A DNA stretch of 56,076 bases, counting the filler, from Platydemus manokwari (lineage: Eukaryota), in assembly GCA_037951405.1 (NCBI GenBank). It is 5 parts of 5 records of this genome, joined end to end, with 100 filler letters (N's around TTAATTAATTAA, not from the genome) between each part and the next. Parts side by side here need not be neighbours in the genome. Positions count along the whole stretch, not along the records: positions 1 to 9,931 come from JBBMOY011187877.1; 4 more parts are not named here. One strand, written 5' to 3'. The position numbers were made by a program, and so were the translations under genes. Positions 1 to 46,329 of the stretch are shown one piece after another (the stretch's first letter is position 1; every line of letters begins with the position of its first letter). The notes under the pieces were generated by a model that had not been told where the DNA came from, did no database searches, and saw only the letters and a program-made list of their open reading frames with translations.

Positions 1-44
1 ATAAGATCTTCAATTTAATATTTAAAAATGAAAAGCCAATTTAA

Positions 45-75
45 AAAAGGCCATTATTTTTGCACCAACCTAATA
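45..75 (+). mobile_element. Right terminal inverted repeat of a mariner element (cecropia/Hsmar1-like) plus TA target site
   Basis: ccattatttttgcaccaacctaa+ta is the reverse complement of TA-TTAGGTTGGTGCAAAAATAATGG, close to the Hsmar1-type TIR; the body of the element lies left of the window. Confidence 0.75.
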
Positions 76-594
76 TAACACAATAATTTAAAAATCGAGG
101 AAATTTTGAAGATTTTTTAAATAGTAAATTTTAACAGAATGGATTGCTATAAGGTTAAATTTTTATTGTTATAGTGAATAAAATGGTAACTAAAAAATAA
201 GTGAATTAAGAAAGCATTCACATGGATTTATTTAAAGAATGTTTATTTAATATTAAAAATAATTTTAGAAATTTTATAATAATTTCCTCAAATAAACATG
301 ATATTGAATTATCAAAAACTAATAAATAGGCTTTACATAATTTTGATCAAAGCATAAAAACCCTTCCATTTTGCAGACAGAATTGATATTAATACATAAG
401 CAAGATGAACACTGTTGATACATTTTAATTTATATTTTTTATTAACATATAATATTTTTATGTGTAACAGAAACCTTTATTTTGACTCTCTCTCATGTTC
501 CTTTCTTATTTATTTTTGTATTTTATTTTCATTCTTAATTATATTCTTAATCTTCAAAATTTCTTCCCGTGAAATATTATTATTAAATATAAAT

Positions 595-840
595 TTCATT
601 CATCGACAACATTTAGTCACTAGAAATCTCGCAAAACATTTGAACACATCCCTCCTTATAATGATTGCGGATGCTAACAAAATATGTCTAATCCATTAAA
701 CTCAAAACTCTTCAAACAGTTTTGTTCTAAAAATGATGAAGAATTTCAAAGACTTTAATTGCACACAGAAGTAAAATGGCTTTCCAAAAGAAACTGCTTT
801 ACTCAACTCTTCTCGCTTTTTTACACTGTTGTTGAATTCG
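595..840 (+). pseudogene. hAT (Buster/Charlie, ZBED5/8-like) transposase fragment
   Basis: Reads IHRQHLVTRNLAKHLNTSL..., then after a frameshift LNSKLFKQFCSKNDEEFQRL*LHTEVKWLSK; matches the Buster motifs H-R-x-x-L and LLHTEVRWLS; contains a stop and a frameshift. Confidence 0.85.
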
Positions 841-1687
841 CACATTCATTTTATTTGTCTCTGACAACTGAATTTTTTCTACATTACACTACTTTAGAAA
901 AAATTCCTAAATTGTGTTAAACAGCAAAATTGTTTTATATTTCATTTCGAAGCTCGTATTTAGTAGAAAAAGGTAGAAAAAATGTCTCAGATTTTCAGTA
1001 AGTCAAGGAACCACCGTATATCGAAGAGAGAGAAGACCTCAGCTTAAGGCCTTAGAGTCTATTATTGAAGAAATATTGAAGAAGTATCAACTTAATTATT
1101 CTCATTAAATATATGTTTTAAATGGAAATATAATACTATTTAGGATTACTTTTCATCTTTCATTTAACTAGTATAAAACTTGTACTTCCTTACAATCAGT
1201 AATTTAAAGGATTCAATCATTATGAGAACGAACTTTATAGGTTTCCATATTGTGGAAGACAAGGAGAAGATGTCCGTGGTTAAATGAAAACGATAGAAAA
1301 GAGTCAAATTTGAAAAAGATCGGGATAAAGTTTCGATATTCCATTTTTAATAAATTAAATATACAATTTAGCAATATTCCTAATCAGGATAATTTTCTGT
1401 AAATAAATCTTTGATTTCTAATCTTTCTTTATCAGTTAATTTACTATCAATTACTATAAATAAATTTACCGTTAGAAATGAAAAGCAAGTAAGATATTTT
1501 GAATTTTTAGATTAGTTATTTAGAAAGTTTTCAGAAATTAGCAGAGGAATTAATTTTATTTTTGATAATATTAGACCGATCAGGTTATTTCATTTTATTA
1601 ATTAAAACATTCAGGGAAAGAGTTTTCCGAAAATTTGTTCTAGAAGAATTAACTATTATTTAGATATTTGAGGATGCAATGCCCAAA

Positions 1688-1954
1688 TGTCCGTACGGGT
1701 ATATTAGTGTAGACTAGCACCTTAGTGTAGTGCGTTCGTTACTGTAGTCACGCACGCAAGTAAGTAGTATAGATCAGGAGTAGCGGACTTAATCCGTATT
1801 TAATTTCTGTGACGTAACTTTAATTTGGGCTAGTCTCTTTTTGTAAAATAGGGTTGTATATTATTATACAAATATAAATAAGTGTGCAACCTTGTTTTGT
1901 TTTTGGAATCGGATTATCAGCGAGAATTGTTGTGTTCTACACCCGGTAGACCCA
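1688..1954 (+). mobile_element. Possible solo LTR
   Basis: GC-richer island with TG...CA ends and imperfect inverted termini (TGTCCGTACGGGT ... ACCCGGTAGACCCA); no TSD found. Confidence 0.3.
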
Positions 1955-2559
1955 ATATATATATAATAGTATTAATAGGCAGTCTTTTGAACGTGTAATT
2001 TCAAAATACGAACGAATGATAGCGAGGGCTGGGTTTAATTACTGGCTATTAATACTACTTTTATTAAATAAAAACTTGTCTACATTTCCAAAAATAAAAA
2101 CAAATCATATACATTACATGCAAAGAGACAAACTAAGATCACAAAAGAGTCAAATCAAAATATCAAAATAGGTTCGCAAATTCACCACTACACTATTTTT
2201 TAATTGAGGAGAAACCTTTATATTAAATGTTAAAAATATACATTATGTCAAAAAAGTACCGGGAATTAATCATTTAAAAAACCCGCTTAAAGGTACTGTA
2301 TCCATCTGTTTTGTTGTTGTCAAAATCTAGGCAGGTTTTAAAAATCAAATCTCATTAGAAAATGTTCTCGAAAGAAAGTCAAATGTTTTGTTGATCAAAT
2401 CTCGAATGCTTGTCTTTAAATATTTTATTAATATCTCAATCCATCTAGAAATTAATTAAATCTTAAATTCAAATAATTGTTTCTTTTCTTGATATTTTGT
2501 TCAAAGAGGATTTTGCTAGCTTTCAAATAATTAGCGAATTTTTTCAACAAAGCGATCTT

Positions 2560-2960
2560 TTTATGTCTGAGAAACCAGCTAAAACAGACAAACAAACATG
2601 TTTTAAACAAATATTTAAAATTTCATGGGCAGTCTTAATCAGCCATATTTATCTTATTAAAACCACCAAAATACAAAAAATAAAACAATCGAAAAGAATA
2701 AAAAGCAGTTAATAGCAAAGAAAAAAAACAGAAAACAGAAAACAAATTCAAATTAACAAACAAAACTAAACCAACAACTAACTCCTTTATATAAAATCCA
2801 GCTAAAAACGGAAAACCACATAAATAGAATAAACTAAAAAAAACATTAAATGAAGCAAAAAATGAAACAAAAAATTTTAAAACGAATAAAAAGCGAAACA
2901 AATTTAACTCCTCAGACATATAATCTCAAATAAAAAAATGAACACTACCAACTATAAAAT
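2560..2960 (-). pseudogene. nad5: Nuclear mitochondrial insertion (NUMT), nad5 fragment
   Basis: ORF 2635-2919 contains LCGFPFLAGFYIKE (nad5 signature xxGxPFLxGFYSKD) and LTAFYSFRL; extreme T-rich coding-strand bias; truncated and embedded among nuclear TEs. Confidence 0.85.
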
Positions 2961-3667
2961 CATTTAGGAAACCACTAGGTTGCGTTAGAAGACTTAAGAA
3001 GTCCATAATTTATTTCGAAACAACTAGGAAGAGTGCGTTAGCCCATTTAAGAAACCACTAAGTTGCCCGAACTACTCGAAGTCAGTTAGAAGATTTGCTA
3101 GTCGACAGAACATGCCAATATCATTTGCCATTGCCAAGTAGTGAGTTAGATCATTTTGTAAACAACTAATTTATATCTATAGTACGTATCGTTCATCATT
3201 TTATTATAGAGCTATGCTCACAGACATCCTTGGTATTTGGTTTTAATCCAAGATAAGGAAGTATAAACAGCTATCCTCTGGAATTGTAAGCTTAGCCGTT
3301 GATCCAACATTTTTATTTGGTTTTTATTGTATTGCAAACTGTATTTTAATGTTATATATTTAATAAACGCTTAGTTGTAGAAAGAGTTACGTTGTTGATC
3401 GATATTTTGAGGCATAAAATAGTAAATGAGACTGATAGGATTAATTTACCGCTTGGATCATTGTTGCCAATCAATTCTATTACCATATAGTTTTGATTGC
3501 GAGGTGAATATAGGTATAGAAATACGGTTTAGTGAGGTGTACCTTGGGCTTGATTAGAACTCATTTGAGACTGATCGAGACAACAGTGACCCGTGAGCTA
3601 AATCATAATAGTAATTTATTGAGACTGATTAAAAACATAAAATTAACACCAAGCCCGAAACACGACA
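2961..3667 (+). mobile_element. 5' LTR (left end truncated) of an LTR retroelement
   Basis: Ends in ...ACGACA 2 nt before a PBS; AATAAA at 3362; internal repeats (catttaRgaaaccactaRgttgc x2, tgagactgat x3). Confidence 0.65.
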
Positions 3668-3669
3668 AC

Positions 3670-3687
3670 TGGTGCCCCAATTGAGGA
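3670..3687 (+). promoter_or_regulatory. Primer-binding site, elongator tRNA-Met type
   Basis: TGGTGCCCCAATTGAGGA versus the complement of metazoan elongator tRNA-Met 3' end TGGTGCCCCGTGTGAGGA (15/18). Confidence 0.7.
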
Positions 3688-4268
3688 AAACTCTTGTTTA
3701 AAATTAATAAAGTTTGAAAGCATAAATAGTTAACATCCAATGGTTTTCGAGTGAGAAAAATTCTTGATTAAAAATTACTAAAAGTTCGAATGTGTAAAAT
3801 TTGAAATAAATTATACATCAACTGTTAAACCCGAGTAAAATTTGATAAATTGAAATTAGGCCAAGGAGCTAATACTGATAAATGAAAGTTAAGCGATAAA
3901 ACTTTTGATAAATTTGATAATTAAAACGCGTATTATTTATTGCGTGAACCGGAGAGCTAGTTTAGCGACGCATAATAAGTATCATCGGTATATAAAATGA
4001 AGAAAAACAGATTAAAGTTTTCAACTTTATAGCAACAAAGTTAACAATTTGAGAGGTCTTAGAGGTCTACACCCTGCTCTAAGTGTCATTATTTAGTAAA
4101 GAGATTGATAACTTAATAGGTCTAATTTCGTAATAAGCATTGATTGTTCCAGAAAAGTGTTGAGTTTACTCCATGAATAGTGTTGATTAAAATCTGCAAA
4201 AAGCGTTATTAGACTTAGGTAGTTTGACCCATAGAGCGATAAAATTGATAATTTGAAATCTGCAAGGA

Positions 4269-5401
4269 GTGCATATGAATAGAAAAAATTCGATATTAAA
4301 GAAATATGATAGACAATTACGTAGAGCAAGCAAAAGCAATTTATTAGAGAATTTGGAAATAGTGAATAGGCATCTAAGCAAAAGTAGAAATATAAGTGAA
4401 ACTGAAAATTATAGTAGACATATTACCAGTGACAGTGAATTAGAAAATAGTAGTAAAGAAAATTATGGTAATAATTTTGAAAGGATAGAACCCAGTAATT
4501 TACCCGAAACAAGCGCCATAGAAAAAGATAGTAAAATAATTGATAGAAATAATTGTAAGGAAATAAGCACCCAAACCTATAGTAAAATAATTGAAACAGG
4601 CACCTAAGTTGATATAGAAAGTGAATTAATTAGAAATTGTAAAGCACCATTAATTAAAATGAATGAAGTAGTTATGATTAATAATAAAAATGTATATATA
4701 CCAATTAATCCCTATGATGGAAAACAATAAGGGTTTGATGACTTTTTCAATGAATAAGATGGACTGACTGTAGGTTGTCATTATATTTAAAATCATACGC
4801 GTTACAAACATTTCAAGGATTAGATTTTGGCGTAATTAAAAATTATAAGGATCTAGTAAGGGAATTAAAAAGCAAATCAGTTATGGAGGATGATGTACAT
4901 GAATTTTATGTAAAGCAATTTAATGATAGATATCAAATGTCTGGAGAGAGTGTTGGAGAATATTCAATGACATTGAAAGAATTAGTAAATAAGGCTTATG
5001 GCAAGTATGTATCTGTTGAGGGTCTTGAGCAAATAGTTAAAAGGGGAATAACACCCATATTAAGAAGTCAAATAGCATTAGCAGAATATAAATATTTCGA
5101 TGAGTTTGAACAAAAAACAAGGATAATTGAAATGATTAATGGGTCAAATAGTTTGTCAAATCATAATATAGGATATGGAATACCTGGAAATTATCCATTG
5201 ATAAGTCCAGTAACATTTAAGGGAAATAAAAAAGAGATACCAACTACTAGTAAACATAATATAGTGACTAAAGATGATGTAACATGGGAACAATTAAACA
5301 AAGTATTAACACAGCTTCAAATAAAAGATGATAATGTTAAGCAAAGCAAAACATATAATAATGGAAATTATTTTGATATGAATAGGAATTATGATCACTA
5401 G
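4269..5401 (+). pseudogene. gag: Retrotransposon gag (capsid-like), decayed
   Basis: INPYDGK, then FNDRYQMSGESVGEYSMTLKELVNKAY (Q-x-x-x-E-S-V-x-E-Y major-homology-like motif of Ty3/Gypsy Gag) and KRGITPILRSQI; broken by stops and frameshifts; downstream of LTR-PBS. Confidence 0.8.
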
Positions 5402-5949
5402 CAGAGGAAAGAAAAAAGAAGTGAGAAGAAGAACAGAAAAAATAGCTAAAAGAGAAAGAGAAATGAAAATTAATATAGAAAAGGAATTAGATACAGAAAT
5501 TACAAGTGTAGAAAATTCATGAAAAAAGACAGAACAAGAATAACAAAAAGAATTGAAAAAATTAGCAAAGGAAAAAAAGAATTACAAAAGAAATTAAAGA
5601 AATTAAGATAAAAGAAAGAGGATCACAATAAGGAATTACAATATGAAGAAATAGAATCAAGATATAGAGAAATAGATCATGATTGCAATGGAGAAATAGA
5701 TTATGATAGAATAAGGAGAACTGAATACAGAGATAATAGAAATGACGATCAATACTATTAGAAGAGGAAATACGAATAATAGAAATAATGATAGGGATAA
5801 TAGAAGTAATGACCGATATTACAGAAGAGAAGATAGAAGAAATAATGAGTATGAAGTGGAAATTATAAGACAGACATTAAGAAGAAATTCATATGCAAAT
5901 TCAAGTGAAGAAGAAGAAAAAAATTTGATAAAAGAAGATAGTTGTGAAT

Positions 5950-7400
5950 TATATACATGTAGCGAAATACTTGGACCACGTATAATGGAAACAATAATAG
6001 GAAAAGTTGAGAAAATACAACAATTAATTAAATATGAAAATTTTGAGAGAACCAGTGAGTTAATAAGAGAAATGCAATTACAAGCTAGAGAAATGAGGAA
6101 ATTAAATGAACAGGAAGAATTTGAGTTAAAATATTGTGGAAAAATAATTAGGATCAATACGGAATTACAAAAGCCGTTTAGATTAAACATTTGGACATTT
6201 ATAAGAAATAAGGAATACAAAATAAAATTTCCCATACATGCATGCACAAACATTAAGAAACTTAAGAAAACATAAATACAGCAATTAGAGGAAAAACATG
6301 GCATAGTAGCAGTGGACATGGTAATAATATTTAAAACAAAAGAGTTAGACGACAAAGAATATCTAATAGATACAGGATTTTCGCAATATGATCCGGATCA
6401 AATCACGAAATGTAAACGACGGAAAAACAAAATTATACGACAAAGCAGTTCAATGGGAACATTATAAAATAAATAAAATTGAGATAGAAGTTAAAATGAT
6501 AGTTAATATAGGCAATGAAATATTAAAAAATATAAGAGTAAAAGATACAGCAACGACAGATTACCTAAAATTTGAAATAGATCGAATTTGGCCATTTAAA
6601 AGAGAAGGAATTAGAAAAATGACTTATAAAGTAGATGTAGGAATGTTAATGAGAAAACAGGACCTTTATTAGGAATAACATTGGAATTAATAACAAAAGG
6701 AGTATTTATGAATTATGAAAAACAAATAGGATATTACCGAATAAGAACAAATCAGAAAAATAGGATAATAGCAGTTATGAGAACATGGAATGAAAGGATC
6801 ACTGGCGATAAAGATCATATTAAGTTACCAATATGGTTATTGTCTGCACCGGTATATCAACTAAAATTGAACATAAGGGGAAAGGAAGAAATAGAAGAAT
6901 TTAGAACTAGTGAAAATGCCTCAATTAAATGGTTTAAAAATTGGATATCTAAACAACAGGGATACCGCAAGAAAAATATATAATAAGATGGAAAAGCATA
7001 CCAAGAAAAATAAAATTAAAATATGAGCATAAGAGAAAAAAAGAGAATATTTGGAGGATATTGGACGATGATTATCAATTTTGGCACTATGGTATAGAAC
7101 CAACAGAGTGAAATAATACAGAAATAGGATTAATAAGTGAAGAAGATAAATATATAGTAAAAGTTGAAGTGTTAAATAGTTACCAGGAAGAAAAAGTTAA
7201 TAAAGTTAATAAAGAAAAAGAAAGAAGTAAAACATTTGAAGAGAAAAATAGAAGAACAATATATAAATAAAAGAGAATGGGGATTAAACAAAAAAATTAT
7301 GAAATATAAATAACGAACCTTATTAGAGGAAGAAGAACTAAAAAATGTGTTCTTAGAGGATAACATAAATGTAGTGACAATTAACATAATAGCCCCAATG
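5950..7400 (+). pseudogene. Tandem ubiquitin-like domains in the retroelement polyprotein
   Basis: Units include ...TNIKKLKKT*IQQLEEKHGIVAVDMVIIFKTKELDDKEYLIDTGF; ...ENASIKWFKNWISKQQG...WRILDDDYQFWHYGIEP; ...EVKHLKRKIEEQ...IMKYK*RTLLEEEELKNVFL. These follow the ubiquitin pattern TIxxVKxxIxxxxGI...LIFxGKxLEDxxxLxDYxI. Confidence 0.6.
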
Positions 7401-7983
7401 CCAAATATACATAAAACGATACCTTGGAGGTATACAATTTCGATGTATGTTGGGGATATAATGACATAAATTTGATAAGATGCGAAGAAAAGGAAGAGGC
7501 AATGAGTGATAAAATTGATAAATCAGGAAACACAGAAATGACAAAATGTAGGAAGAAAAGTAAAGATAGAAAAGCTAATAAACAATGGTCAGTAGACTTA
7601 GATGAAATAACGGATGAAGTAGAAAGTGTGGATGATAAAAGCATTGATAAAAAAGAGAAACATCAAAGAAGAAGAAGAAAAACGAAGTTAAAAATGCAGA
7701 ACATACTGAATCATCAGGAAAATATTTCATAAAATTATTTACGGAAACAAGAGAAGAATGCATACCTGGAAAGATGATAACGACATTGCAAACAACAATA
7801 AACCTAATAGATAATCAAATAATTGATAAGGATGAGGGAGCACAAATAATAGCAAATGAATATGAGAACGAAATAAATCAAAATGATGGATGGACTAAAT
7901 TAGTGCAATTTATGCTAGAGCAATTGGTGGACAAAAGAAAATCTATAGTTCTAAACGAAGAAAAGCAATTAGAGAAACAGTAG

Positions 7984-8878
7984 CCTCAACAAAAATCTAA
8001 ATTCACCACCATAGTTCAAACATTATTAACAATGTATCCAGTAGGATTGATAGGAGGAGTAGATGCGGGAATAGATGGTTTTGATTGTGGAAAACCACAA
8101 TGGGGACAAAAATATTCATTACTAGATATTGATAAATGCCCAGAGGCATACCCTGTAAATTTAACAAAATATATACCTAAGAAAATGTGATTCGTTTCAT
8201 AATAATAGAGAATAATAGAGCAATAATAGGCTGTCAACAACAATGTAATTGGAGAAAATTAAGGGATTTAAGTCAAATACAGGTCAAAAATGAAACGGAT
8301 ATAATAGAATTTATAATTAAGTGTCATCAAGGATTTGGTGTAAAATGTAAAATAGAGAAATTAGAAGAAATAACAATAACAGGAAAATGGGAAGATTTAA
8401 TAAGTCAAGAATGGAGAGTTAATTTCCTAATAATAATACAGTTAGCAAGCAGTAAACAAAAGACAATTGAAGCTATAAGACATACAAAAGCAATGATAAA
8501 AGATTAAAATCCAGGCAAAAATAAATGGAAATTTAAAGCACCAAAAGCTAAGGAGATAATAGGAATATCATGGAAATCATATACCAATAAGTTAACATAT
8601 CATCTCATAGCATAATGGCAATATTTGCAAAAATAGGAATTAATGGAGAAAAAGAAATTAAGTTAAATAATACTATACCATCTAAAACAATCATATTACC
8701 AGCATTAGGAACCCACGATATATCGTTCACACAGTGTTACGCTTATCCATATAAATCAAAATGTAATTGTGAAAAAAGTTTTAAATTTTGTACGACTAGT
8801 ACGGATAAGGTAATAATCAATGTGCCAGAATGGAAGTTATCAAAGATAATTAATAATGAAAATGAAATAGAAAATTAG
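7984..8878 (+). pseudogene. Env-like glycoprotein remnant (chuvirus/gB-type N-terminus) and downstream Cys-rich segments
   Basis: In frame after ORF 7774-7983: hydrophobic IVQTLLTMYPVGLIGGVDAG then IDGFDCGKPQWGQKYSLLDIDKCP, resembling the G[YF]DC...SLLD...C start of chuvirus-like glycoproteins; later fragments are Cys-rich. Confidence 0.5.
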
Positions 8879-9149
8879 GAAGTGAAAAGAAATAATTTAT
8901 TATAGACAATAGATAAAAGAATGGAAAAAATAAAGATGAAAAAGGAGAACGTCTTAGAGTAAAAGGAAAAGCGATTCAGTAAAGAAAAGAATTAGAATTA
9001 ATAAGAATAGAAAGAGATAAAATTATAAAAGATAGTTTACAAATTATAGAAAATGTCAATTTAGCAACTCAAGTAGCTAAAAACAGTAATTTGGCATGAT
9101 GTCTAGAGAGTTTCTAGAATTATAAACAAAAGAGTACAAGAAATAAACA

Positions 9150-9931
9150 CACAGATATGACGCATGCGACCTACAAAATCAGCATATAAGAGCAAGTAAA
9201 TATATTTTGATTGCACTTTATTATACACACATTAGTTTACACTATTAATTCAGCGAAACTTTTTGTCCGACGAAGCAATTATTATTGACAAGAAATCTAA
9301 GCGGATCAATCTTATTATTATTTACGAAGAATTTTGACGAAGCAATTTTATCAAATCATTTATTTACAAAGCATTTTGATTAACCAATTTTATTTGAAGA
9401 ATTATTCGAAAAATCCCGTTGAGTATCATTTACAAGAAGCATATACGAGTATATTTAATTCCGAATTCAACTATTTATATCTCGAAATCATGATGAGTAA
9501 AATTTTATACTTTTATTACGCGCCCACAGATATCTCGATAGCTGTGTGGTTGTTTTAAACTTATTTAAGTTCCATCTTATAACTTTCACTTTCTTTTTTA
9601 TCCACAGGAGTGTCTTGCCAATTAGTTAGGCACATCTGAATGTTCTACTGAGAGGTTCTGGTCGTCCACAATAGTATCTTGAAGTGTGCATTAAAATTTG
9701 ATTTATTAATAAACGTATTTTATCATCATTGTTTATTTAATAATTGATTTTAACATTTTCAGAAAGACTCATATTTACCGATATCTATAGTTTAAATATT
9801 ATTATTACTCGAGAGTGATTTAAACACTCCCTACATATACTGAGCGACAAGATTTTTAACCCGGTCTTAATTAGTATACATTAAGGCGTTTTCCCAATTA
9901 TTATTGTTGAATTATTAGTATAACTGATTAA
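9150..9931 (+). mobile_element. Possible LTR of a different family, cut by the gap
   Basis: Non-coding; pyrimidine tract + cacag acceptor at ~9607 and AATAAA at ~9708, same layout as the 2961-3667 LTR but not alignable to it by eye. Confidence 0.3.
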
Positions 9932-10031
9932 NNNNNNNNNNNNNNNNNNNNNNNNNNNNNNNNNNNNNNNNNNNNTTAATTAATTAANNNNNNNNNNNNN
10001 NNNNNNNNNNNNNNNNNNNNNNNNNNNNNNN
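9932..10031. other. Artificial assembly spacer (N44-TTAATTAATTAA-N44)
   Basis: 100-bp linker with stops in all six frames; the same linker occurs at 25647-25746, 35513-35612 and 46096-46195. Confidence 0.97.
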
Positions 10032-14400: not shown

Positions 14401-14929
14401 AAGCAACGCAATTGATTCGTTTGGCTACTCGAATTCTAGTTCGAAGAAGAAATATGTGATATGAATGTAAAATAAAATATTAAATATTTCAAAACCATCG
14501 GAATAAGAAAGTGAATATCATCAATTTGTATCTGAATTAAAAGTTGAAACTGAAAAAGTATAACAGTGGATTTCCAAGAAATGGAATATGGGTGACAACT
14601 GTGGTTTATGAAAAATTTTATTCCGTCAAAGTCCATATCAGATGAGAGAATGATATTCGATAATGAAATAAATACGGATAGAGCATTCTCTGAAAGATGG
14701 GATAACATCTACAAATTTCAAGATGAAATCCTTGTGTTGGGATCCCCAACTAACACAATTCAAACCAAACAAAAATATATGTTAAAAATTAAGTGAAGTT
14801 TTAATGCTGAAAATAATAGAATATTTGTTTGGAAAACATGTCATATGGAAATATATTATTTTGTGTTAAAAAAGATTATGACTTTTGAATCCAACATAAA
14901 AAATGAAGAAGTGTTGTGTTGTTCGCTGT

Positions 14930-17900
14930 TGCCAGACAGATTGGGGGATAACATCAAACACTTTATTAAAAAGTTTAATCGATTTTTTGAGGCTAGGAAA
15001 ATCCCAAAGTACGTCCAACACGCTATCGTTTAATGTAGTGGAAGATATTGTCTCACAAAATAACTAAAACAAAGTTAACTTTCCTCATGGCGCATTGTTC
15101 AGATGTGGAGCTTGAGAAATTAAAATGAGAGATATTGAGGAAGTCGATCAAATAAACGAAACCGTAAAAAAGCTCGATGAAGTAAGAAATAAAGAAAGAG
15201 AAGTAAACACAATGGGAGCAGAAGAATGGGCCACGATAGTCAGAGCACAACTAAAACACAGGCCTTTAGAATGAAAGTTAGATAATAGGACTTACTTAAA
15301 CTGCAAAAAACTAGGGCATATAGCACGAAATTGTAAAAGCGAGAAAGTCGTGACATGCTACGACTGTCACTAAGTAGGTCACATGACAAGATATTGTACA
15401 AATGTCCTAAAGTGCCTTAGATATCAATACCGAGAACATCAAGAGCAAATGCTGAGAGAAGGGGACAACAAAGGTCAAACTACAAACAAGGGACATCGAT
15501 AATTCAGCGAAGGTCTGATCACAGACAGAGGACCAATAGAATAAGTGAAAACAGACAGAGTTTCAACGGAAAAAATTACAGAATGGTGAACCTAAATAAT
15601 AGACAAGTAGCGGTGGTCGAGTAAAAATCGGATTCAGAATACGACGTAGAACACTCAAAAGAGAATGCGCCGACTCCCTTCGAGTGTATCGGGGCAATTC
15701 ACAAAACAGTAAATCTAAGTCTGAGCAAGATACCGAGAGTATAAGTGGTAATATTGATATTTATAATACAAGTAATTTAAAGCAAATAAACAAAATCAAA
15801 AATATAATAAACAAGCAAGGCTGTCCCCAGAACAAAAAAATTGGAAAGTGGAAATACAATTTGCAAACGGTAACAACGATGATATAGAATCAAGAAATAG
15901 AGTACAATAGAAAGTTGTAAATTTTATAAAGAAGAAGATGACTAAAAAGGTAGTAGAAAAACAAGGAGACGAAAAATTAGTAACGATCAATGAGTTAAAG
16001 CTTCCCCAGAACGAGCATAAATATAAAAATAGAGAATAAAGAATTTGAATGCTTGTTAGACGCGGGCTCATGAGTTAATTTTATAGATAAGACAATATTT
16101 GAGACACTCGAACAAGTAGAAATCGAATATGAAATTTTACGATTTGCTAACAACAGTATATTAGAGGTTGTTGGTAGAATAAGAACAAAAATCAAGTTCA
16201 AGACAGCGAGATTTGGTAGGATTGTAACCGATGAAGACAGATTCAAGAAAAGAAAAGAATGTCTTGCGGTGAAAGAAGGATCTCGTTTATGGGGAAGATT
16301 AAAAGCAAATAATAACGCATTCATGGCAGGTCTTTGAAACATTGGTTGTACAAAGTTAGTAAAATACAAGATTGTTACAAACGGACCTCGTAGACAACCA
16401 ATAAATTTAGAAGGAAAGGCAGAAGAGGCAATCAAGAATTAAGGAGAAAACAACATTATAAGAAAATGCAATTCACCGTGGAATACACCACTTAATAACG
16501 GAGAGACAAGCGTTTCCCATGCCAAATATGGAAGACCTATTAGACACTTTACACGGCTCTAAGTATTTCTCGTTAGTAGACTTGGGAAATGCATATGATC
16601 ATATTATCAGGTAGGGCTTCACAAAGAATCACAAGGAAAAACGATAATCTCGATGAAAGAGGAGCAATGCTGTTGTACATGGATGCCATTTGGGATAGCA
16701 ACAGTACCGGGAACATTTCAAGAATTGATGACAAAAATATTATTAGATATGAGAGATAAAGAAACCATGGCACATTTAGACGACATATTAAAAACGATAG
16801 AGAACACTATGAAATACTGGAAGAAGTAATAAAAAGAAATGCAAGACAATGCATCAATTTAGAAAAATGTAAAATAATGAGAATGAAGAAGGCATTAAGA
16901 GAGGTCCAAGTAAGATTGAAACAATAGAAAAATTTGAAAGAAAAAAATGTTTAAAAAACCTACGAAACTTTCTTGTAATTTGTGGACATTACAGGAGATT
17001 TATAAAGGAATACTCAAAAAAATCAAGAGCACTAAAAGAATTGTGTGGTAAAAATAGTGAAAAACTCATTTCAAATGAAGCATGCAGGAGTTCATCCTAA
17101 ATCTCGATGCAAGTTTCGACACAATAAGAGCGATATTATCGCAAAGAGATAAAAAATAAAATGAACGAATCATTGCGTACGAATCTCAAGCAATAAGCAA
17201 ACATGAGAAAGATATATTACTTCTGTCAGCATTTCAATCACTATTTGTACGGGAATCACATTCATGCTGAAAACAAAGAACCCAATAACTCCACAATTCC
17301 ATACATGGCTAAATTATGTAAGCAACCTGGATATACACCTGGATATGCTTTCAGGGAATACCTGTACGACATGTTCCCAATATCAAACGAAACACGAGAA
17401 CCCAAATACGGGAAAAATGAAGACCCGGATATTAACAAAAATGACAAAGAACATAGGAAAAGAATGATAGATTAAAAACGATGAGATAGAAATGATAAAA
17501 ATAAGGATAGTTCGAACGCGAAGTAGTAATTTCATGCTCGACAGAGACACAATAAAACTGAAGAAAACAAAATTTGGATATCAGTAGTGTAAAGACGAGA
17601 AATGATAGAACACACACAGGAACGGAAAAAGTCACGCAATATATAAAAAAATTTTGAAAGGGAAAGAAAATCAAAGTTATAACCCAGTGTGAACAATGCC
17701 AAACAACTAAACTGACAACAATGAAAACGAAGGAAAAACCAAAGTTACTGCATCGACATTTTCGGACCGTTGAGAAAAACAAATAGAGGAGAAAAATTTT
17801 ATAATTGCAATAATTGACCAGTTCAGTACATACATAATACTGACACCCATAAATAAACAAAACAAGGAAACAATAGAAAGAGTGATCCAGAATCAATGGG

Positions 17901-18095
17901 TATTAAAATACGGAGCATCCGAGGAAATACACGCAGATTGTGGAAAATGTTATGAATCACAGAGAATCAAAGATATGGCGTTCGAAATGAGAACGCAGTT
18001 GATATTCTCAAGTCCTTATCATCACAGCATTAATGGAATCATTGAACAACAATTTCGAATAATTAGGGATTACACAAACGTGACGATAGAAGAAA
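14930..18095 (+). mobile_element. Decayed Ty3/Gypsy internal region (gag-pro-RT-RNaseH-IN)
   Basis: CCHC knuckles (CKKLGHIARNC, CYDCH*VGHMTRYC), protease LLDAGS, RT (FPMPNMEDLLDTLHGSKYFSLVDLG, MPFG, HLDD), integrase (EEIHADCG, SSPYHHSINGIIE) in Gypsy order; many stops and frameshifts. Confidence 0.9.
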
Positions 18096-18289
18096 TACAA
18101 AATAATAGAATATTTGTTTGGAAAACATGTAATTTGGAAATATATTTCTGTGGTACAAAAATTACGAATTTTGACTACAACATAAATTGTGAAAAGAGTT
18201 AGCAACTAACAGCGAACATGAAGGTAAAGTTGTTTTTGCAAAAAGATTTATTAGAATGGGATAAATATAATAGGCAATTTATAAATGAG

Positions 18290-18625
18290 ATAATAATTTA
18301 TTGCAAAGTGTTGTTAATAAATTTAATAATAAAGTTTATTCAAATATTGGTGTTAAACCCTTTAAAGCAAGTAAAAATTCTGAAATAATTAAATGAAAAG
18401 TTGAAGAATGGAATAATTTTAATAATAATTTAAATGCTAAACCAAAAATTAAAATTTCAGATCGACTAAGAATTTTAAAAAATAAAAATAAATTTGAAAA
18501 AGGTTATACTACTAAATATTCAAATGAAATATTTGTTATTAAAGAAATTTGCAAAACTGACCCAATAACGTATAGATTAAATGATTTAAATGATGTAAAT
18601 ATTTTTGGAAGGTTTTATCGAAATT
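18290..18625 (+). pseudogene. Polinton/Maverick c-integrase C-terminal fragment
   Basis: KNKFEKGYTTKYSNEIFVIKEICKTDPITYRLNDLNDVNIFGRFY matches the Maverick pattern FEKGYxxxWSxEIFxI...PxTYxLxDLxxxxIxGxFY. Confidence 0.85.
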
Positions 18626-18719: not shown

Positions 18720-21700
18720 CATCACACTTCGCATTTTATCTGTTTCATCGTTGGCTCCCAATCTTTGATCTGTAATGGTTTGATTTTTTCGGCACTTATC
18801 AGCCTCAGTGGAATTGCCATTGGAGGTAGGATGTTGAAATATTATGCAATTCATTGCGATTTTATGGAATTCCAAGTTTTCGTAGGATATCCTACTGTGT
18901 ATTGTAGTCTTTTCTTCTTAATCATATCCCAGAGAGCTGAAAATTTTTAAATTTTTTGTTGTTAGTCTCTTTGATGAGTTTGGGTTCGTCCATTGGACAT
19001 TTGATATGCAGCAGCATAATTGTAAGCTTTCTTTAGTCAATCATCTGTATCTCTATTCCCAAATTAGATTCAATGAATTGACATTGAGTCCGTATTATTT
19101 ACAACATAATTTGCTATAATTTTCATAATTTGATCGTAGTAAAGACATGTGTTTGTGACTCTGTTGAGTAGAGGCACTTTCTACATGCCATTGTTAATGT
19201 GTCTGTCTTCACCTTGTGGATAAATTGAGACTATTTTCCTCCACATAGGGCTCGTTGTTCCGTTGAGACAATTGCAGCGTCCGCTTTAAATTCGCTTGTT
19301 CCAAAACATTTGATATGATTGGGCAAAGCATCTCCTTAACCTTTTTGGTGCTTCTTTTATTCTTTTACACTCTATAATTTCTGATTTTGCATAATTAAAC
19401 TCATTGGATAGAATATTTTGTTCGATTCTAAGCATTTAGATGCTATTGATAATTTCGGATCTCACAGAGATGTGTAGTTTCTTTGCGACATATTTAATTG
19501 ACTTTCTAACTTTTATGTGTTCTTGAAGTGCGGGAGTTCACTATGAAATGAAAGGCCAACGAAACAAACAAACAAAAAACGAGGTGAGGGATATCCCACC
19601 GCCTTGAAACGAAAATTTTTATGTTGAAATAAAATTTAGCATTTTTTTTAAGCCAGTCGAATATTCCACTTTGGTCTTTGGCCATGATTTTTGTATTTGC
19701 CGCTTTGTTCAGTGAGTGGTATGCCGCTTGTCTGGTAACTTCGTGTTTGCTGATGAGTAAATAGAACGCATGTATGATGGATCGGATGGCGTAATCCTCT
19801 GACATGTTCTTAAGATCGCAACCGCTATTGGATTTTGACGAATATAGATAGTTGGTGCTGCAGTACTTAGGAATACCCAACACTGTTTTCAGATTTTTGC
19901 GTGCCATCACGTCGAATTCCAATAGTCTGGTAAATGTGATGTAATAGTTCCGGAGGTGTGTATAAAGTACTGAAATGAGCTTAGCTTTTGCTACGGTAAG
20001 AGTATTGATTCTGTTAGCTTTTTCGTGCTCTTTTCAATCTCAATAAAGTTAATTCCTAGATATCGATAGTGATCTTCCAGTTTGGTGAGAGATATCCTTT
20101 GCCTGTCAAGGTAGACATTACTCAGGATGGAGCCACTATTCGTGACGTGCAGATTTCCACATTTGGAGGCTTTAAACCGGAAGCCTATTAATTGTGCAAG
20201 TGTTGATGCATCATTGACTATTTCACTAATTTCTCTGATTAGTGCGAGGTAGTCTGCATAGGTCAGGCAGGATATCTTGGTGGTGGCTATTAGTAAACGC
20301 CCAATTTTGTTTTCTTCCATTCTCACAAGTATGGGGTTGATAGTAATATTAAAAAGTAATATTGAGATTGGGCATCCTTGTCTGATCCCGCACTACATTA
20401 CGAATACATTTGTTTCGTAGTCACCGCATTTATATGTTGTTCGGCAGTTTCTATACAGGCATTTGATTAATTTGAGTGAATGTTTGTCAACACTCGAATG
20501 TTTTAGGATGGTGAACATGGATTTAAAATTTACAGATGGAAAGGCTTCCTTGATGTTCATAAATGCCTTTTTTGTATGTTTTTCGAATAAAGGAAATTAT
20601 GCTCTGTGCAACTGTCTGTTGGCCCTTAGCTTTTCTGCAGATGGTGTATTAGGTTGTAAGTCTCTACCAATTCTCGCAACTGTAAATAAAGGATCGTTGT
20701 TACCAATATATAGCAGCAATAAGTCCCCGTGACCCGATTTTTTCATTTTGTCGGTCCTTTATCGGTTTGTGGATCATTGTTGTTGAGTATGTCCGTCATT
20801 CCTCAGGTATTTCAATATTCTTTATGCATATTTTGAATAGAGCATATAGCATCTCTACAGTCGGGTCTGCGTAAAACAAATCTCGGTAGTTAATGTTGTT
20901 TCTTCCAGGTGAGGTCTTTCTCGGTAAGCATTTGATGTATTGTTTCGCAGTCTGTCTTGCTAAAGGAAAAGGTTGGCTCTTGTTTAGTTAGTTTCTTTAG
21001 TTCGCAGAATTGTAAAACAAGGTTTGTTGCATGGTAGTTGGCATTCATGGACAACAATGTGTGGATTTTATTTCTTGGTGTAAAGCTCCTTTATTTTACA
21101 TTTCTTTGGCAACGCATTAGCATGGATGGTTCTCGTTATGATTTCAAATGCCGCCGATAGTTCGTTGTTAAATAAGTTTCTCATTTTGATATCGATTTTT
21201 CCTCTGCTTATATCATTGTGTGCACTTTCTAAAAAAGACACCCTGGTGTTTAATTGTGGACATGCTTTTTACAAATTCACAGATGATTTAAAAAGTTTAG
21301 TTGATTGTTTCTTCTTTAAGATTCTTGGCTAAATTGTTCGCTGAGCTACGTCTACTTTTCAGGGCATCTTTAGGGGCCTCGTTATATATTGCGAGTAGTG
21401 GTTCTTCTCTTTTAATCTGTTTTCGGCGGTCGTGGAATGCTGCATTCGCATTCTCTTTTATTTTTGATATGTTGATTTTAGTTAACTTGCTATTTTTAGT
21501 GGTGTTACGGATGTACACAAATATCAAGGGTCCGCTTTCTTCAAAGTTGGATTCCAGGAGTCTGTCTTCATACGCTTCATTGATTTCTAGCTTATTTTTC
21601 AACCACAGAAGATGGGACAAGTTGTCTTTTAAATTATTTAGTATTTTAGTTTTATCATGGTTTGTTGAATTTCCTTCTGGGTCTATAAAGGCAATTTTGT

Positions 21701-22750
21701 TGTTGCTGATATTTGCAATTATGGGGATTCATATTTTGCACATTAGGAGTATAGGATAAAAGATGATTTCTCTGTTTTTAAAGTATTTGAAAAAAAGGTT
21801 TTCTTTGATTTCCTCGATGTTGTTAGCGGCTAACGATTTGTTTATGGTCGGTTCTAAAATTAGATAATTTCGACATCGAACTTCTTTTGAGCAGAGGACG
21901 ACTATATATCTCTCAAAAAACAGAAGGTGGTCATGTTAGTATGTTTCAATATCTGAGTTTTCTACCTGGTCCCCTGCGATATTTATACTGAATTTACTGA
22001 AGCCGCTAATTTTTGTGTCTGATCTGATATTTTCCACGTTATGCCTACTACATGTCCGCATACGAGGGCTCTTCAGTCGTCATTATCTGGGATTGACGAT
22101 TCTGGTAGCTATGTCATTCATTGAGCGTTTAATTTGCCCAACTGTCGCAATGTTTCATTGTGTTGATTAATATGGTAGCTTTTGCAGTTGCTCTACACAA
22201 GGACGCATTTTGGTTTCCTAATGGGTCGACAAACTCAAACCTTCATTTTATGAACCGACTAATAGAGTCCAATAAAGATTGTTGATGTTGATTGGAGTGA
22301 TTATGAGGCTGTATTTCTTGAGAGTATCCCGGTGTCCACTATGTCTAGGTTATGAAGAATAGTAGCTTCTGTGACATTGGATTTGAGGTAGTATAATATT
22401 TTTGTTTTGATGTTTCTAGTTATGTAATCGTCTATGTTATCTCCGGAGAACGAAAGAGAATTACATTAATGCAGTGAGGGCGTTCTTGTTGTTCTACCGG
22501 ATTTGCCTTAAGTGCTACACCACCAGTCTTGTTTAGTTAATCGGGGTCTTAATTTAATGTTTATCTGTAAATTTAGGAAATTTCATGATGGATCTTAGAG
22601 GCTTGTTTTTCGGCCTGGAATGTGATTCAGATTTCTGCTAAATGGCGAAGATCCATTTTAACAGGGCATAATCAATCCATTCGCAAGGAGCATATTTTCT
22701 TTTTACGGTAATATTCAAGAAAACGAGGAATTTTTGCATCAGAGCGGATT
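18720..22750 (-). mobile_element. Decayed R2-group (NeSL-like) non-LTR retrotransposon
   Basis: RT GIRQGCPISILLFNITINPIL and CLTYADYLAL (~20250-20390), YRYLGI, C-terminal knuckle CRKCLYSTESQTHV (~19150-19190), and an upstream Ulp1-like protease segment (~21500-21780); no APE domain seen. Confidence 0.8.
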
Positions 22751-23680: not shown

Positions 23681-25949
23681 TATATTTTATAATCATACAG
23701 ATAAAATAATCATTTTTATACATCGATAATTATAATCAATCAATGTCCTTAATCAGTAAAGATGATTTCTAATTCAGTGTCAGAATCAATAAGTTCCACT
23801 ATATTTGTATTGAATTAAATTGGACTTGGAAGTTTGGGATTTTTCTCAGGCATTTAGGTACACAATCCAGCACCCGTTTCTTCTTATTTTTCTTCAATTT
23901 CTCCAGGCCCTATGTTACAGTCCATTGTTGCCATGTGTTCTGAGCTTTAGTTTCGTTATTATTCTCCCTCTCTGTCAAACCCATATTTTTTCAATATTAT
24001 GTCTTTTCTCACCGATTCTGTCATGTCATATTTCTTCGTCCACTGTTCACATGGCCTAACTGTCATAGAGATTTTCTCAACATCGGATGCATCATTAGTT
24101 TATCTTTCTGAGAATAGTGCCAGCTTGCCCGTGTCAAAAGTACAAACATATGATTTATACTTTTTATTTTTTAATTTTCAATTTCCAGCGATATTTCTGT
24201 CATTGAATTATCTTAATATTTTAAGCAAATTAAAATTTTGATTACCGATTATTTAGTCAACTATACCGTGGCTGGGATAAATTTTATTACAAAAATCTTT
24301 TGAATGAAGTTAATTCCACCAATTTCTGACAACATATAATTTCTGTGGACTATTTATAGCCTACTTGTATGAGTATAATCTCTATCAAATATTCAATCAT
24401 CATTGCAAAAGGAGGGTTGCTGGTCAATATGGTAAAATTCTCCAACCAATTTAAAAAAATTTGATTAATTTAAAATATCACCATAAAGAATAATGGTTGT
24501 CCATACTCCATAATTTAAATTTAATGTGTTTATAGTAAAGTATTTTCCAAAAAACACGAACACACACAATCACTTTTGTTAATACCCACCTATTAGAAAC
24601 ATTTTTTTCAATTCTATTAAGTGACTCCGGTGCCTTTCTCGATAAAACTGGTAACATGGCGACATTACATTCATCTTTAGACAGGTGACTCAGACGCCTA
24701 TTGTATCTATAAAGGTAATTTATTAAGAGATCTATTTCCATTATCGCTCTATAATGCCAAAACAACAAAGACAATTTAATTTATCAAAAGTAAATTGTTT
24801 TGAGTTGAAATTGATTTCCTTTTAAATCATTTTGAAATTCTTTGTGGGAAAAATATTTGTGTTCTTTCATAAAATAGATAAAATTAACTAAAAATCTATC
24901 CAACTGATATCGAAAAATTTCAACCTGTATTGGAAACAAATTAGATTAGTGGTTCGACAATTCTGAAAAGAATGTCACCCAATATAGTTATTGAATGAGA
25001 TATAAATTTATCCAATACATTAAAATCAAAGTTTTCAGCAAATCTTACGTTAGTTAAAATGAATAGGTTGATATTATAAAGGTAATGAAAAGAATCACAT
25101 TGATTAAAATCGGACTAGCGGATATACAGTTATTAGTCAAGGACATCCTTCCAAGCATTTGACTATTTCATAAAAATCCAGAAATTTTATGCATTTATTT
25201 AATGAATATCATTTGATATTGGATAAATAATCAGGAAAAATAGTAAATTTATTGCATACCTCAGTAAAAAATTTCGTTACAGGAATACTTATACCAAATC
25301 AATGGTAAGATTCTTCGAAACCACGACTTCCTAAATGTTTTTAAGTTAAGTTCTGTGACATATAATTCCATACGACGTTATTATATTACTATTTATAATT
25401 ATACCTTCTGGTTATAACTGATTATTTTTAAATTCAATTTCTAAATTTAACCGATCAATGTGAATAATCCATTTTTTATAAATTATTTTATTGATGTTGA
25501 TTTTATTTTCATGTGAAACTTGATTTTGGGTGGGGAAAACTTAATAATAAATCTGCTAACAGCCATTCATAGCAAGTTAAACCGATTTATATTTTTATTA
25601 AAATCTAATGATAAAATATTTTATATTCATTTTTTAAAAAGCATCANNNNNNNNNNNNNNNNNNNNNNNNNNNNNNNNNNNNNNNNNNNNTTAATTAATT
25701 AANNNNNNNNNNNNNNNNNNNNNNNNNNNNNNNNNNNNNNNNNNNNCAAAAATTGTGGTTCAAAATGAGTAGTTGAAATCATTAATAAGTCATTTAAATG
25801 TTCATCAGACAACCGTGACCTGTTCGTGTGTTTCATAGTAAGCTTGGCGGGCCCCTGGTTTAAGTTAAGAAAAGAGGTCTTAAAATAAAATTTTTAATTT
25901 GTTGAGTGTATTGCAAAAATCTATATAGTTTATTTAATAAAATTCTTTA

Positions 25950-34657: not shown

Positions 34658-35612
34658 TTACGAATTAAGAAAATCATTAGATACTCAACAAGGTGGACAT
34701 AATAATGTTTATAATTCAATGAATTAACAGTGTGAAGACATTAAATTGAAAATATTGAAAATGTTGGGGAAATATCAAGTATGTTAAATTTTATTTTAAT
34801 AGATAATTCACAAGACAAAACAGGAGAATTGATTGAATAAATACAAGAAAACTAAAGAAGATAAAAATACTGATAACAAAGGTTTCAAACAAACAAAAGC
34901 TTTTTATAATTTTAAAGAGAACAATGGAAAATATACTTTACAGGAATATTTCCTTTAAATCAGATATTTGGATTTTAGAACCATTAATTCTTATAATGAT
35001 TAAATTAGCTTTAAATAGGAACTTAGATGATAAAAATATTTTGGGGACAAAAGGTGAGGGGAAATTAATCTCAATGTCTTTAGAATTTTGAATGCCAGAA
35101 TCAATTCTAAATTCTATAAATAAAGTAAAATTGTCGAAGAATATTACTTCTTATAAAACTGAAGTTGTGATTTGTAATGATAATCTACCTAGAAATATTG
35201 AAAATATATATATTAGATTAAATATAAATTGGTTTTGTTTCTGAGAATATTATAATAGCAAAAAAAATACATTTGAATCGGTGGCAATTTTACTTTTGAA
35301 TCTAAATTTTCTAAAATTTTGTTTTGTATTTCTCGTTCAATATATTGGTGGAAAAGGAGCTGTTCCTAGTTGCACAAGAAGTTTTAGTGAAGAGAGAAAC
35401 AAATAAGATAAAGAAGAAAGGAGATCATTGCGAACGTCCTCACAGAATTTTGAAATTTTTAAGTCCACATCAAGTTCTTCTTGATTTCCAGGGACAGCCA
35501 AAACCTCGAAGANNNNNNNNNNNNNNNNNNNNNNNNNNNNNNNNNNNNNNNNNNNNTTAATTAATTAANNNNNNNNNNNNNNNNNNNNNNNNNNNNNNNN
35601 NNNNNNNNNNNN

Positions 35613-40952: not shown

Positions 40953-41823
40953 TCGTGCAATTCATAAGTCTCCATCTGTAAAACTAAAAGAAAATAACAA
41001 TGAGAACAAACCAAATGTACTGAGTTACTTTAATGCACAACAAAACACAGTAACCGTAAGAACAAATAACGATAAATAATAAGCAATTTCATAGCAACTG
41101 TTCATAATGCTCATCGTCTTGCACCAAACAGAGATTGCATCGTTTCCTGAAGCTTAAATAACATTTAAGGAGGACTTCTTGATTGATGTTTATTATTTCT
41201 GTGCGTTCGTTGAGCTTTGTATAATCGTTATGGATTACCTAAACTCGATATTTGATATAGCTCCATAACCAAAAGTCCAAAAATTATCTTCTCTTGATTT
41301 AAAGAATATTTGAAAGGTTTTATTTTTTCTTCTTTGAGATATCTGTGAAAAGAAGTTTGTGACGTTATACTCACTCGTGCAGTTTCTTGTTGATTTATGC
41401 CCTCATTCTCTTTTACAAAATTTACCACCTTTTCCTTCATGATTTCATCAGACGGTCTTCCTGATCGCAACCTGGTGGATAAGTTTCCAGTTTCTTCAAA
41501 CTTCTGTTTCCAGTATTGCACTGTTGTCCTAGCTGATGGTGCATGATTAAAATGTTGTTGAAATTCTTGGCAAAGTTTGGCACTACTATGGTACATTATT
41601 GCATGGCTAACTATAAACGCTCTATCCGCAGGCAAAAATTTAACATCACCAGCTGCTTCCACCATATTGTAATAATACAACTGATTAATAAGAAATACGA
41701 AATAAAGTACATTAATCAGTGAATAATAATCAATATCATGAAGTATAAATATGTGAATATAAATTATATTGTGTTTTGTGGTTTTATTTTAGTTTTAGAT
41801 AAGGAGACCTAGGAATCCCGCGG
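40953..41823 (-). mobile_element. Internally deleted Tc1/mariner-superfamily transposon (DUF4817-like HTH N-terminus)
   Basis: TA-flanked TIRs at both ends; ORF 41228-41680 has RAFIV...FQQHFN.APSARTTVQYWKQKFEETGNL...RSGRP; DDD catalytic core missing, C-terminal tail retained. Confidence 0.9.
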
Positions 41824-45130: not shown

Positions 45131-46329
45131 TTTAAATTATCGCTGACCAACAAAAATCAAAATTAAAAAAAACGCAACAATAAAAATAAACATAATTCTT
45201 AAAAATAAGCGAGTTGCTATGTTACACTGCTTTTCTTTTGATTGACTTGGATAGACACCATTAATCCAGCCAATCAAAGGAAAAGCAGACTCAGTCTAAC
45301 CACCAGGAGTAATAAATATAAACAATTTGTTTGAATAATATGTTTTTATAATAACAATTTTACATTGTAGATATGCTATAACCTCAATGGTCAGTTGGTT
45401 TGAATTGTCTCATTCTAGGACTACGTCAGGTACTTCTGCTGAACTACTAGGTCAGAATTCCTTTCTAACTACTTAATAAATTATCCATACCATTGTTCTG
45501 GTTGTTCAAGTTCTTCAAGTTTTTTATTAAGGTCAGAAGGATTTTAACTAGTTTATGAAAAATATGAGTTTAAAGTATGAATGCACCATTTGAAAATATT
45601 ATTAGTGGACCTGATTGCAAAGGCGCAGTAAAAGAAATAATGGCAATAATTTAAATATAAATAAGTTTTATAATATGAAAATATTATTTTCAAATTAATT
45701 GATTATCAATAATCAATTTCAAGTATTAAGTAGAAAAAAAACTGTAACAAACAAATTGTGTTGATTAACAAATAACCAGGTATTTAATAAGGCTTTTTAA
45801 TTATCAGCTGTTGTTTTGTGTAGGATATTAAAAGATCTTTGTGTGGAGAGTTGCAAGGTTATTTTTATGGATCTTTCGATAATTGGGACCTGCGGATCCC
45901 GGCAAACTATTAAAGAGCAAGAATTGATGAGTTTGGATTAAGTTTAAGTATTTAGTAAATGAGTGGTAGGACTAGGTACAGGACAGTATTACTTAGATTA
46001 TTCATTAAAATTATCATCGTGAAATTCATTTAGAATTGTATATTAAAAATAAAATTAATGTTATTTTGTAGTAAATTTCACTATAATAATTCATANNNNN
46101 NNNNNNNNNNNNNNNNNNNNNNNNNNNNNNNNNNNNNNNTTAATTAATTAANNNNNNNNNNNNNNNNNNNNNNNNNNNNNNNNNNNNNNNNNNNNATCAT
46201 TTTAATCTAAAAATATTTATTATTTTACAAAAAAGATAACAATTTTTAAAATTTATTTTAAAAAAGATTACTTTTATCATGTTTTTGTTCTGATTAATTT
46301 ATTTCAATATTATTATTGAAAATTCTTTT

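Follow-up and report, generated by a model that had tools for sequence, protein, structure and literature searches.

The window, by which we mean the whole 56,076-nucleotide stretch of Platydemus manokwari DNA that was analysed, filler included, contains a decayed copy of a Ty3/gypsy-type retroelement whose family has many copies. The window is eukaryotic and repeat-rich, with about 28% G+C, and the finding is confined to the first of its five joined pieces (positions 1-9931). The linkers at 9932-10031, 25647-25746, 35513-35612 and 46096-46195 are runs of N around a 12-base spacer and are artificial, so that neighbours across them are not true neighbours. A domain search of the whole window returned only mobile-element domains and ankyrin repeats, the latter at 54836-55117 on the minus strand (PF00023, E 8.5e-13). 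Other elements include a decayed canonical gypsy element (14600-18400, plus strand) with a CCHC knuckle, protease and integrase, which served as our protease control, a decayed element at 19500-21730 on the minus strand with a reverse transcriptase match (PF00078) that by eye is of the non-LTR type, and a helix-turn-helix frame at 41231-41788 on the minus strand (PF13565, PF13518), probably a piece of a Tc1/mariner-type transposase.

All parts of the element in the first piece lie on the plus strand. The probable 3' part of a 5' LTR (2960-3667, the start being uncertain), assigned from sequence and many-copy cover, ends with CA at 3666-3667, two bases upstream of a primer-binding-site-like stretch (3670-3681). 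The first nine of the 12 bases of this stretch (3670-3678) are complementary to the last nine bases of tRNA-Met(CAU); the tRNA identity is not unique, and the same last nine bases are common to other tRNAs (tRNA ends in supplementary file 2 of PMC13524379). The first-pass annotation had placed its feature inside an LTR element, and Gag and the primer site agree with this, whereas BLASTN found no matching LTR pair and a local alignment scored 56, against a shuffle mean of 44 and a maximum of 68 in 100 shuffles, the piece ending at 9931. A broken Ty3/gypsy-type Gag with a capsid domain occupies 4275-5400. Its capsid (4754-5398) matches PF03732 with E 0.006, below the cut-off, and Gag was placed in the ESM Atlas at rank 2 (score 0.91) in a cluster that is 56% Retrotrans_gag; a motif scan found no CCHC knuckle in Gag. 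Between Gag and an array of ubiquitin-like domains (UBLs) is a charged low-complexity spacer with a helical stretch (5400-6173), containing a unit proposed at about 6120 that is unsupported as a UBL. An EF-hand-like stretch in this spacer (5402-5761, plus strand; PF13499, E 0.0012, below the cut-off) may be chance or another captured domain. The array is followed by a charged coding spacer (7439-8004) with a basic cluster at 7667, an env-like remnant (8005-9070), and a non-coding many-copy 3' region (9071-9931) that runs without pol to the end of the piece.

The env-like remnant consists of a weakly hydrophobic stretch and then a Cys-containing region like the start of a gB-type env, for which we used what we take to be the opening motif of that class. 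It is short, with about 350 codons, hydropathy shows no membrane anchor, and there is no match to it in Pfam or PDB. The assignment was made by eye, by comparison with the gB-type env entries that supplementary file 3 of PMC13524379 lists, and this 3' part is likely an env remnant. Neither a reverse transcriptase motif nor a pol Pfam match was found in 4200-9300, and there is no reverse transcriptase, RNase H or integrase before the piece ends; presumably the element depended on a pol-bearing helper, or pol was lost in the lineage. The array had been described as sitting in the place of pol, but a better description is that it lies between gag and the env-like part of a copy without pol, because elements with GAG-ENV-POL order put pol after env (available text of PMC13524379). 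The 3' region has short sub-repeats and a CGACA at 9845 that resembles the 5' LTR end, and depth climbs to 22501 in its last bin; it may be a divergent LTR or another repeat.

The plus strand is purine-rich from about 4300 to 9100 (0.57-0.76 per 200 bases), and this strand bias is unbroken from gag into the array. Our proposed reading path of about 1570 codons (4275-9070, plus strand) passes through several stops and frame changes. G+C at codon position 1 exceeds that at position 3 in all 11 of its segments, with the array behaving like gag, and a coding signature is present along 4275-8980. The long minus-strand ORFs over the array are plausibly by-products of the A-rich strand, and in other copies the path would form one continuous reading frame.

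Within the array we delimited four units, U1 (6174-6425), U2 (6469-6710), U3 (6849-7141) and U4 (7142-7397), all on the plus strand. In their translation X stands for each stop or frame change, and unit ends and breaks were picked after inspection. U1, with a stop at 6273, is the best supported; U2, a weak candidate, has a frame change near 6654; U3 has about 20 inserted residues, a frame change near 6957 and a stop at 7109; and U4 has a frame change near 7200 and a stop at 7311. U1 (6174-6416) matches the ubiquitin family PF00240 with E 0.0052 and 16.9 bits, below the curated cut-off of 25.4, and its only three PDB sequence matches are all designed ubiquitin variants (E 0.04-0.58). In the Pfam check that the first-pass annotation proposed, U1 gave this sub-threshold match and U2-U4 gave none; no other in-frame piece matched a Ubl family in Pfam, and U1 alone is seen by a public profile.

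Below we use a UBL profile built here from 49 natural domains of this type, whose mean identity is 35%; z denotes the whole-domain profile score relative to composition-matched residue shuffles. U1 scores at z 4.2-4.5, reached by 1/1000 and 0/1000 shuffles, and U3 at z 4.0-4.1, reached by 0/1000 and 0/300. The score of U4 varies with break placement (z 2.7, 3.4 and 3.9, reached by 12/1000, 2/1000 and 0/300 shuffles respectively), and U2 reaches only z 2.1-2.5, equalled by 13, 25 and 23 per 1000 shuffles. For comparison, none of 51 control tiles from other coding parts exceeds z 1.9. With this profile the beta-grasp core pattern extends over the whole domain in U1, U3 and U4 (z 3.4-4.5) and is weak in U2, such that U1, U3 and U4 are likely UBL domains and U2 is a possible fourth. 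The first-pass annotation had counted four to five units, and the five peptide stretches it quoted all occur in the sequence in the places and frames it gave; three of its units are supported, U2 is weak and the fifth is unsupported. That fifth unit, containing FELKYCGKII (5964-6185), scores at chance level (z 0.1) and is ruled out as a whole UBL, as is 6699-6878 (z 0.3). By eye, 5964-6173 and 6699-6850 look like the first two-thirds of a UBL, yet their scores are at chance level.

Other searches separate the units less cleanly. In local HHalign comparisons the number of shuffles (of 40) reaching the observed score was 0 for U1, 1 for U4, 2 for U0 (upstream of U1), 5 for U3, 12 for U2 and 38 for the linker, and the result is clear for U1 only. 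A frameshift-aware whole-domain scan was run over both strands of the whole window with three backgrounds. Using the standard background, the U1, U4, U3 and U2 peaks rank 1, 2, 4 and 9 among 568; the four units take ranks 1, 19, 24 and 38 among 570 peaks when the background is mixed, and 6, 163, 165 and 340 among 571 when it follows the composition of the element itself. The top five scan scores were reached by 0/150 codon shuffles with all three backgrounds, a null that does not preserve open frames, and four non-overlapping peaks stand in tandem at domain spacing. An earlier profile of 118 viral ubiquitins was too uniform; a 13-row profile places U1 first in the window (10.0 bits, the next 4.2) and detects no other unit. 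No usable ESM Atlas match was obtained for 6630-6980.

As the first-pass annotation had noted, the units are very divergent from one another, with pairwise identities of 8/63 to 15/65 (13-23%), and a pairwise shuffle test detects no similarity between them (best 2/300 shuffles, 36 pairs). Identity to ubiquitin ranges from 11/71 to 21/71. The ubiquitin core positions are hydrophobic at 12-13 of 14 in each of the four units, a count that depends on the alignment. At position 44 there is Ile in U1 and U4, Lys in U3 and Met in U2, the last also having Glu at 70; U1 and U4 retain the Ile44 patch only in part, and U3 and U2 do not retain it. No di-Gly follows any of the four units, which was likewise part of the original description, and along the whole path of about 1570 codons Gly-Gly occurs just once, at 8053. 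On these sequence features we predict that each unit is an integral UBL domain, not cleaved off, in a position C-terminal to Gag. USP7, OASL, Rad60/Esc2 and coronavirus nsp3 likewise have several divergent, non-cleavable UBLs in a single chain, where they act as interaction modules, although these proteins are not in a retroelement and are cited as an architectural parallel only.

Structure prediction was applied to U1. AlphaFold2 with the single sequence gave a model of pLDDT 44 with the order strand-strand-helix-strand, for which Foldseek returned no match. When 31 UBL rows were supplied the pLDDT was 80, with a beta-grasp fold and matches to ubiquitin, NEDD8 and SUMO. Because ubiquitin-family rows were used in the alignment, this second model is circular, and it would indicate compatibility with a beta-grasp only. 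The units of the window aligned poorly to one another in MAFFT, and that alignment was left out of the folding.

Other copies of the element were seen as overlapping short contigs of one run, possibly the window's own source, which matches 55% of the words of the stretch; among the holders listed there was no RNA dataset containing it. A total of 3604 contigs were placed on 1600-9931, of which 398 are at ≥99% identity, 582 at 95-99%, 1192 at 90-95% and 1432 below 90%. Summed depth, which is not equal to copy number, is 694-6434 in all 27 bins across 2156-9661, compared with 12-20 for the near-identical pieces listed. There are many copies over gag, the array and the env-like part alike, and the array is a standard component of the family. 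Linkage of the array to gag in other copies, which the first-pass annotation presupposed, agrees with this cover over both, although no contig spans the whole element, so that long-range linkage rests on overlapping short contigs. Three contigs join the coding end to the non-coding 3' region (9088 to 9155), which hints that pol is missing from some other copies as well.

Several features of the window copy are not those of the family at large. At the frame changes near 6654, 6957, 7200 and 7435 other copies show small indels or loose ends, and among the best-supported differences listed they differ inside the stops at 5520, 7311 and 7981, at least three of the ten on the path; these breaks are therefore attributed to private decay of the window copy. 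Of 265 differences from other copies, the 40 with the best support are at codon position 1 in 21 cases, at position 2 in 9 and at position 3 in 10, and this lack of a third-position excess is as expected for decay of the window copy and is silent on selection in the family. Depth among the 654 contigs placed on 5900-7500 falls to 54-190 at 6440-6547, and most copies diverge from the window copy at 6398, with loose ends in 13 contigs behind that position, and match it again from about 6573. In the window copy the final strand of U1 and the beginning of U2 are thus atypical of the family, and 6398-6573 would be a variant segment or the product of recombination. A depth peak of 17590 is present at 6332-6385, several-fold over its flanks, where U1 ends and the DTG motif lies. 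Single contigs show many partial deletions across the array.

Protein homologues were not found for the U0 and U1 region among 875 longer and 17 near-length candidates, or for Gag among 451 longer candidates, and locus scans in which Gag, the env-like part or 6657-6956 served as query gave no relatives in viral or metagenome contigs. No intact relative of the element was found in the protein searches and locus scans. The closest described layout is that of Burro/GYPSM1, giant gypsy elements of dugesiid planarians in which a single Ubi2/SUMO-like domain lies after gag and before an env in the same frame; they also carry MATH, BIR and BCL2-like domains, and the authors read this cargo as meddling with ubiquitination and apoptosis (PMC6431247, available text). 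Both Burro and the element here have Gag first, then accessory domains (including, in Burro, Ubi2/SUMO-like PF11976), and then an in-frame env-like region, the env and the single frame being putative in our case. They differ in that the element here has three to four tandem units, nearer to ubiquitin (PF00240) than to SUMO, that no CCHC knuckles, MATH, BIR, BCL2 or ankyrin domains were found in it, and that it has about 1570 codons compared with about 4900 in Burro, the window copy being without pol. A GAG-ENV-POL order with an HSV/gB-type env has been described for errantivirus-like elements of Nematoda, Bryozoa and Platyhelminthes (PMC13524379, available text). The order of gag and then a gB-like env region, which is putative here, with no pol in between, is shared, but the env-like part here is short and anchorless, its likeness is by eye only, and no pol comes after it. 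We file the element under neither group, because it fails the other marks of Burro and lacks pol.

The first-pass annotation named no described LTR family with this layout. A search of the openly available literature found no tandem UBL array in an LTR element, and Repbase, Dfam or subscription journals may contain one; a single UBL in this position is, however, already present in Burro (PMC6431247). The word 'ubiquitin' is absent from the main text and seven supplementary files of PMC13524379, and from the main texts of PMC5408684, PMC11673190 and PMC12440569 (term search). Judged from sequence, the tandem array would extend the known architecture of LTR elements beyond a single UBL.

What might such an array do? 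No PTAP/PSAP or PPxY motif is present on the path, and YPx(1-3)L is found in the env-like part only, not in Gag. When ubiquitin stripped of its two glycines is fused to a Gag that has no late domain, it drives budding that depends on ESCRT and works through L8 and I44 (available text of PMC2958808). Because Gag here is without late-domain motifs and glycine-less ubiquitin suffices on such a Gag (PMC2958808), we favour, tentatively and at well under even odds, a ubiquitin-mimic role: the Ty3/gypsy-type family would encode three to four tailless UBLs behind Gag, likely in one frame and likely mimicking ubiquitin so as to dock ubiquitin-binding proteins, those of ESCRT most likely. Linked to Gag, the UBLs would constitute a built-in, non-cleavable ubiquitin mimic that docks host ubiquitin-binding proteins, ESCRT factors first, and ESCRT recruitment would in turn lead to particle release. 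Like the engineered fusions, the array would place a ubiquitin fold that cannot be conjugated C-terminal to a Gag without late-domain motifs, although the fusions are artificial and carry one genuine ubiquitin whose Ile44 patch is intact, whereas the units here are natural, multiple and divergent (PMC2958808). The array presumably arose by capture of a host UBL, then old duplication and divergence. As the env-like part is short, anchorless and recognised by eye only, budding may not belong to the life cycle at all. More speculative still is the general statement that a many-copy, pol-less gypsy-type family has swapped late domains for an encoded chain of divergent ubiquitin mimics on Gag, in natural parallel to the engineered fusions, which would recruit host ubiquitin-binding machinery.

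Just as likely as the ESCRT role, and held with the same reserve, is that the array is real and selected but has no part in budding, and serves as decoy or adaptor to counter host control that depends on ubiquitin or SUMO, be it silencing, restriction or the turnover of Gag by the proteasome. The Burro cargo has been loosely read the same way by its authors (PMC6431247), the surfaces of the units differ and would suit different partners, and the env-like part has no membrane anchor; however, no piece matches the SUMO-like PF11976, and no ligase, DUB or SUMO-protease domain was found in the element. Less likely, and on balance improbable, is a passenger reading, in which the UBLs are a fragment of a host multi-UBL gene that a non-autonomous family has captured and carries without any role for the element. 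The absence of pol from the window copy, the many partial array deletions in single contigs and the frequent capture of extra ORFs by LTR elements (PMC5408684, available text) would all fit a passenger, but the array shares the strand and codon-position bias of gag and has family-wide cover, and its cores are kept in units that are only 13-23% identical, although this conservation could predate capture. If instead U1 were the sole true UBL and the others chance beta-beta-alpha-beta patterns in Lys/Ile-rich sequence, then the lack of public profile matches to U2-U4, their weak HHalign results, the low ranks with local background and the want of a usable Atlas match for 6630-6980 would be explained. 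We regard this as distinctly unlikely given that U3 and U4 are matched by 0/1000 and 2/1000 residue shuffles, that all 51 control tiles stay at z 1.9 or below, and that four tandem peaks stand at domain spacing, with 0/150 codon shuffles (open frames not preserved) reaching the top five.

Two further alternatives concern proteolysis. Part of the array could be a decayed retroviral-type aspartic protease, with LIDTG at 6363 as its catalytic motif, U2 as its second half, and two or three UBLs flanking it, a pairing like that of UBL and protease in DDI1. U2 is the weakest UBL, and 6321-6740 scores z 3.2-3.8 against a profile built from 49 bacterial retropepsin-like domains, on a par with the z 3.5 of the window's decayed gypsy protease. 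That score comes from the motif alone, with z 0.3 beyond it, although the control also falls to z 0.0 there, so that the profile is blunt; a 41-aa control piece, on the other hand, matches four Pfam retropepsin families (E 0.011-0.18) and the 45-aa test piece none. Furthermore, the D-x-G aligns gap-free to ubiquitin positions 58-60, after L50, D52 and L56, removal of the motif leaves U1 with a UBL score of z 4.3, and 6469-6740 scores z 2.1 as a UBL compared with z 1.1 as a protease, all of which makes a protease unlikely. Processing of the polyprotein, a function offered by the first-pass annotation and considered here as cleavage by host ubiquitin C-terminal hydrolases (UCHs), is unsupported, as the units lack di-Gly. 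Cleavage by UCH or USP enzymes requires a di-Gly tail, and no Gly-Gly follows the four units. There is a precedent in cytopathic pestiviruses, in which ubiquitin inserts release NS3 via UCH cleavage (PMC8310069, available text), and a cut would be of use at the position of the array, with Gag on one side and the env-like part on the other. Both cases involve a ubiquitin-fold unit inside a viral polyprotein, but the pestivirus insert is near-intact, being ubiquitin minus three residues (PMC8310069), whereas the units here are divergent and only 11/71 to 21/71 identical to ubiquitin. The lack of di-Gly and this divergence leave pestivirus-type processing very improbable, the least probable of the readings considered.

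How env-bearing LTR elements of invertebrates exit from cells, and what role the ubiquitin-related cargo of Burro-type elements plays, are open questions in the field. Should the array prove to be only cargo, it would be a case of host-domain capture. A compact family with several non-cleavable UBLs as its main cargo would make both questions testable with small isolated domains.
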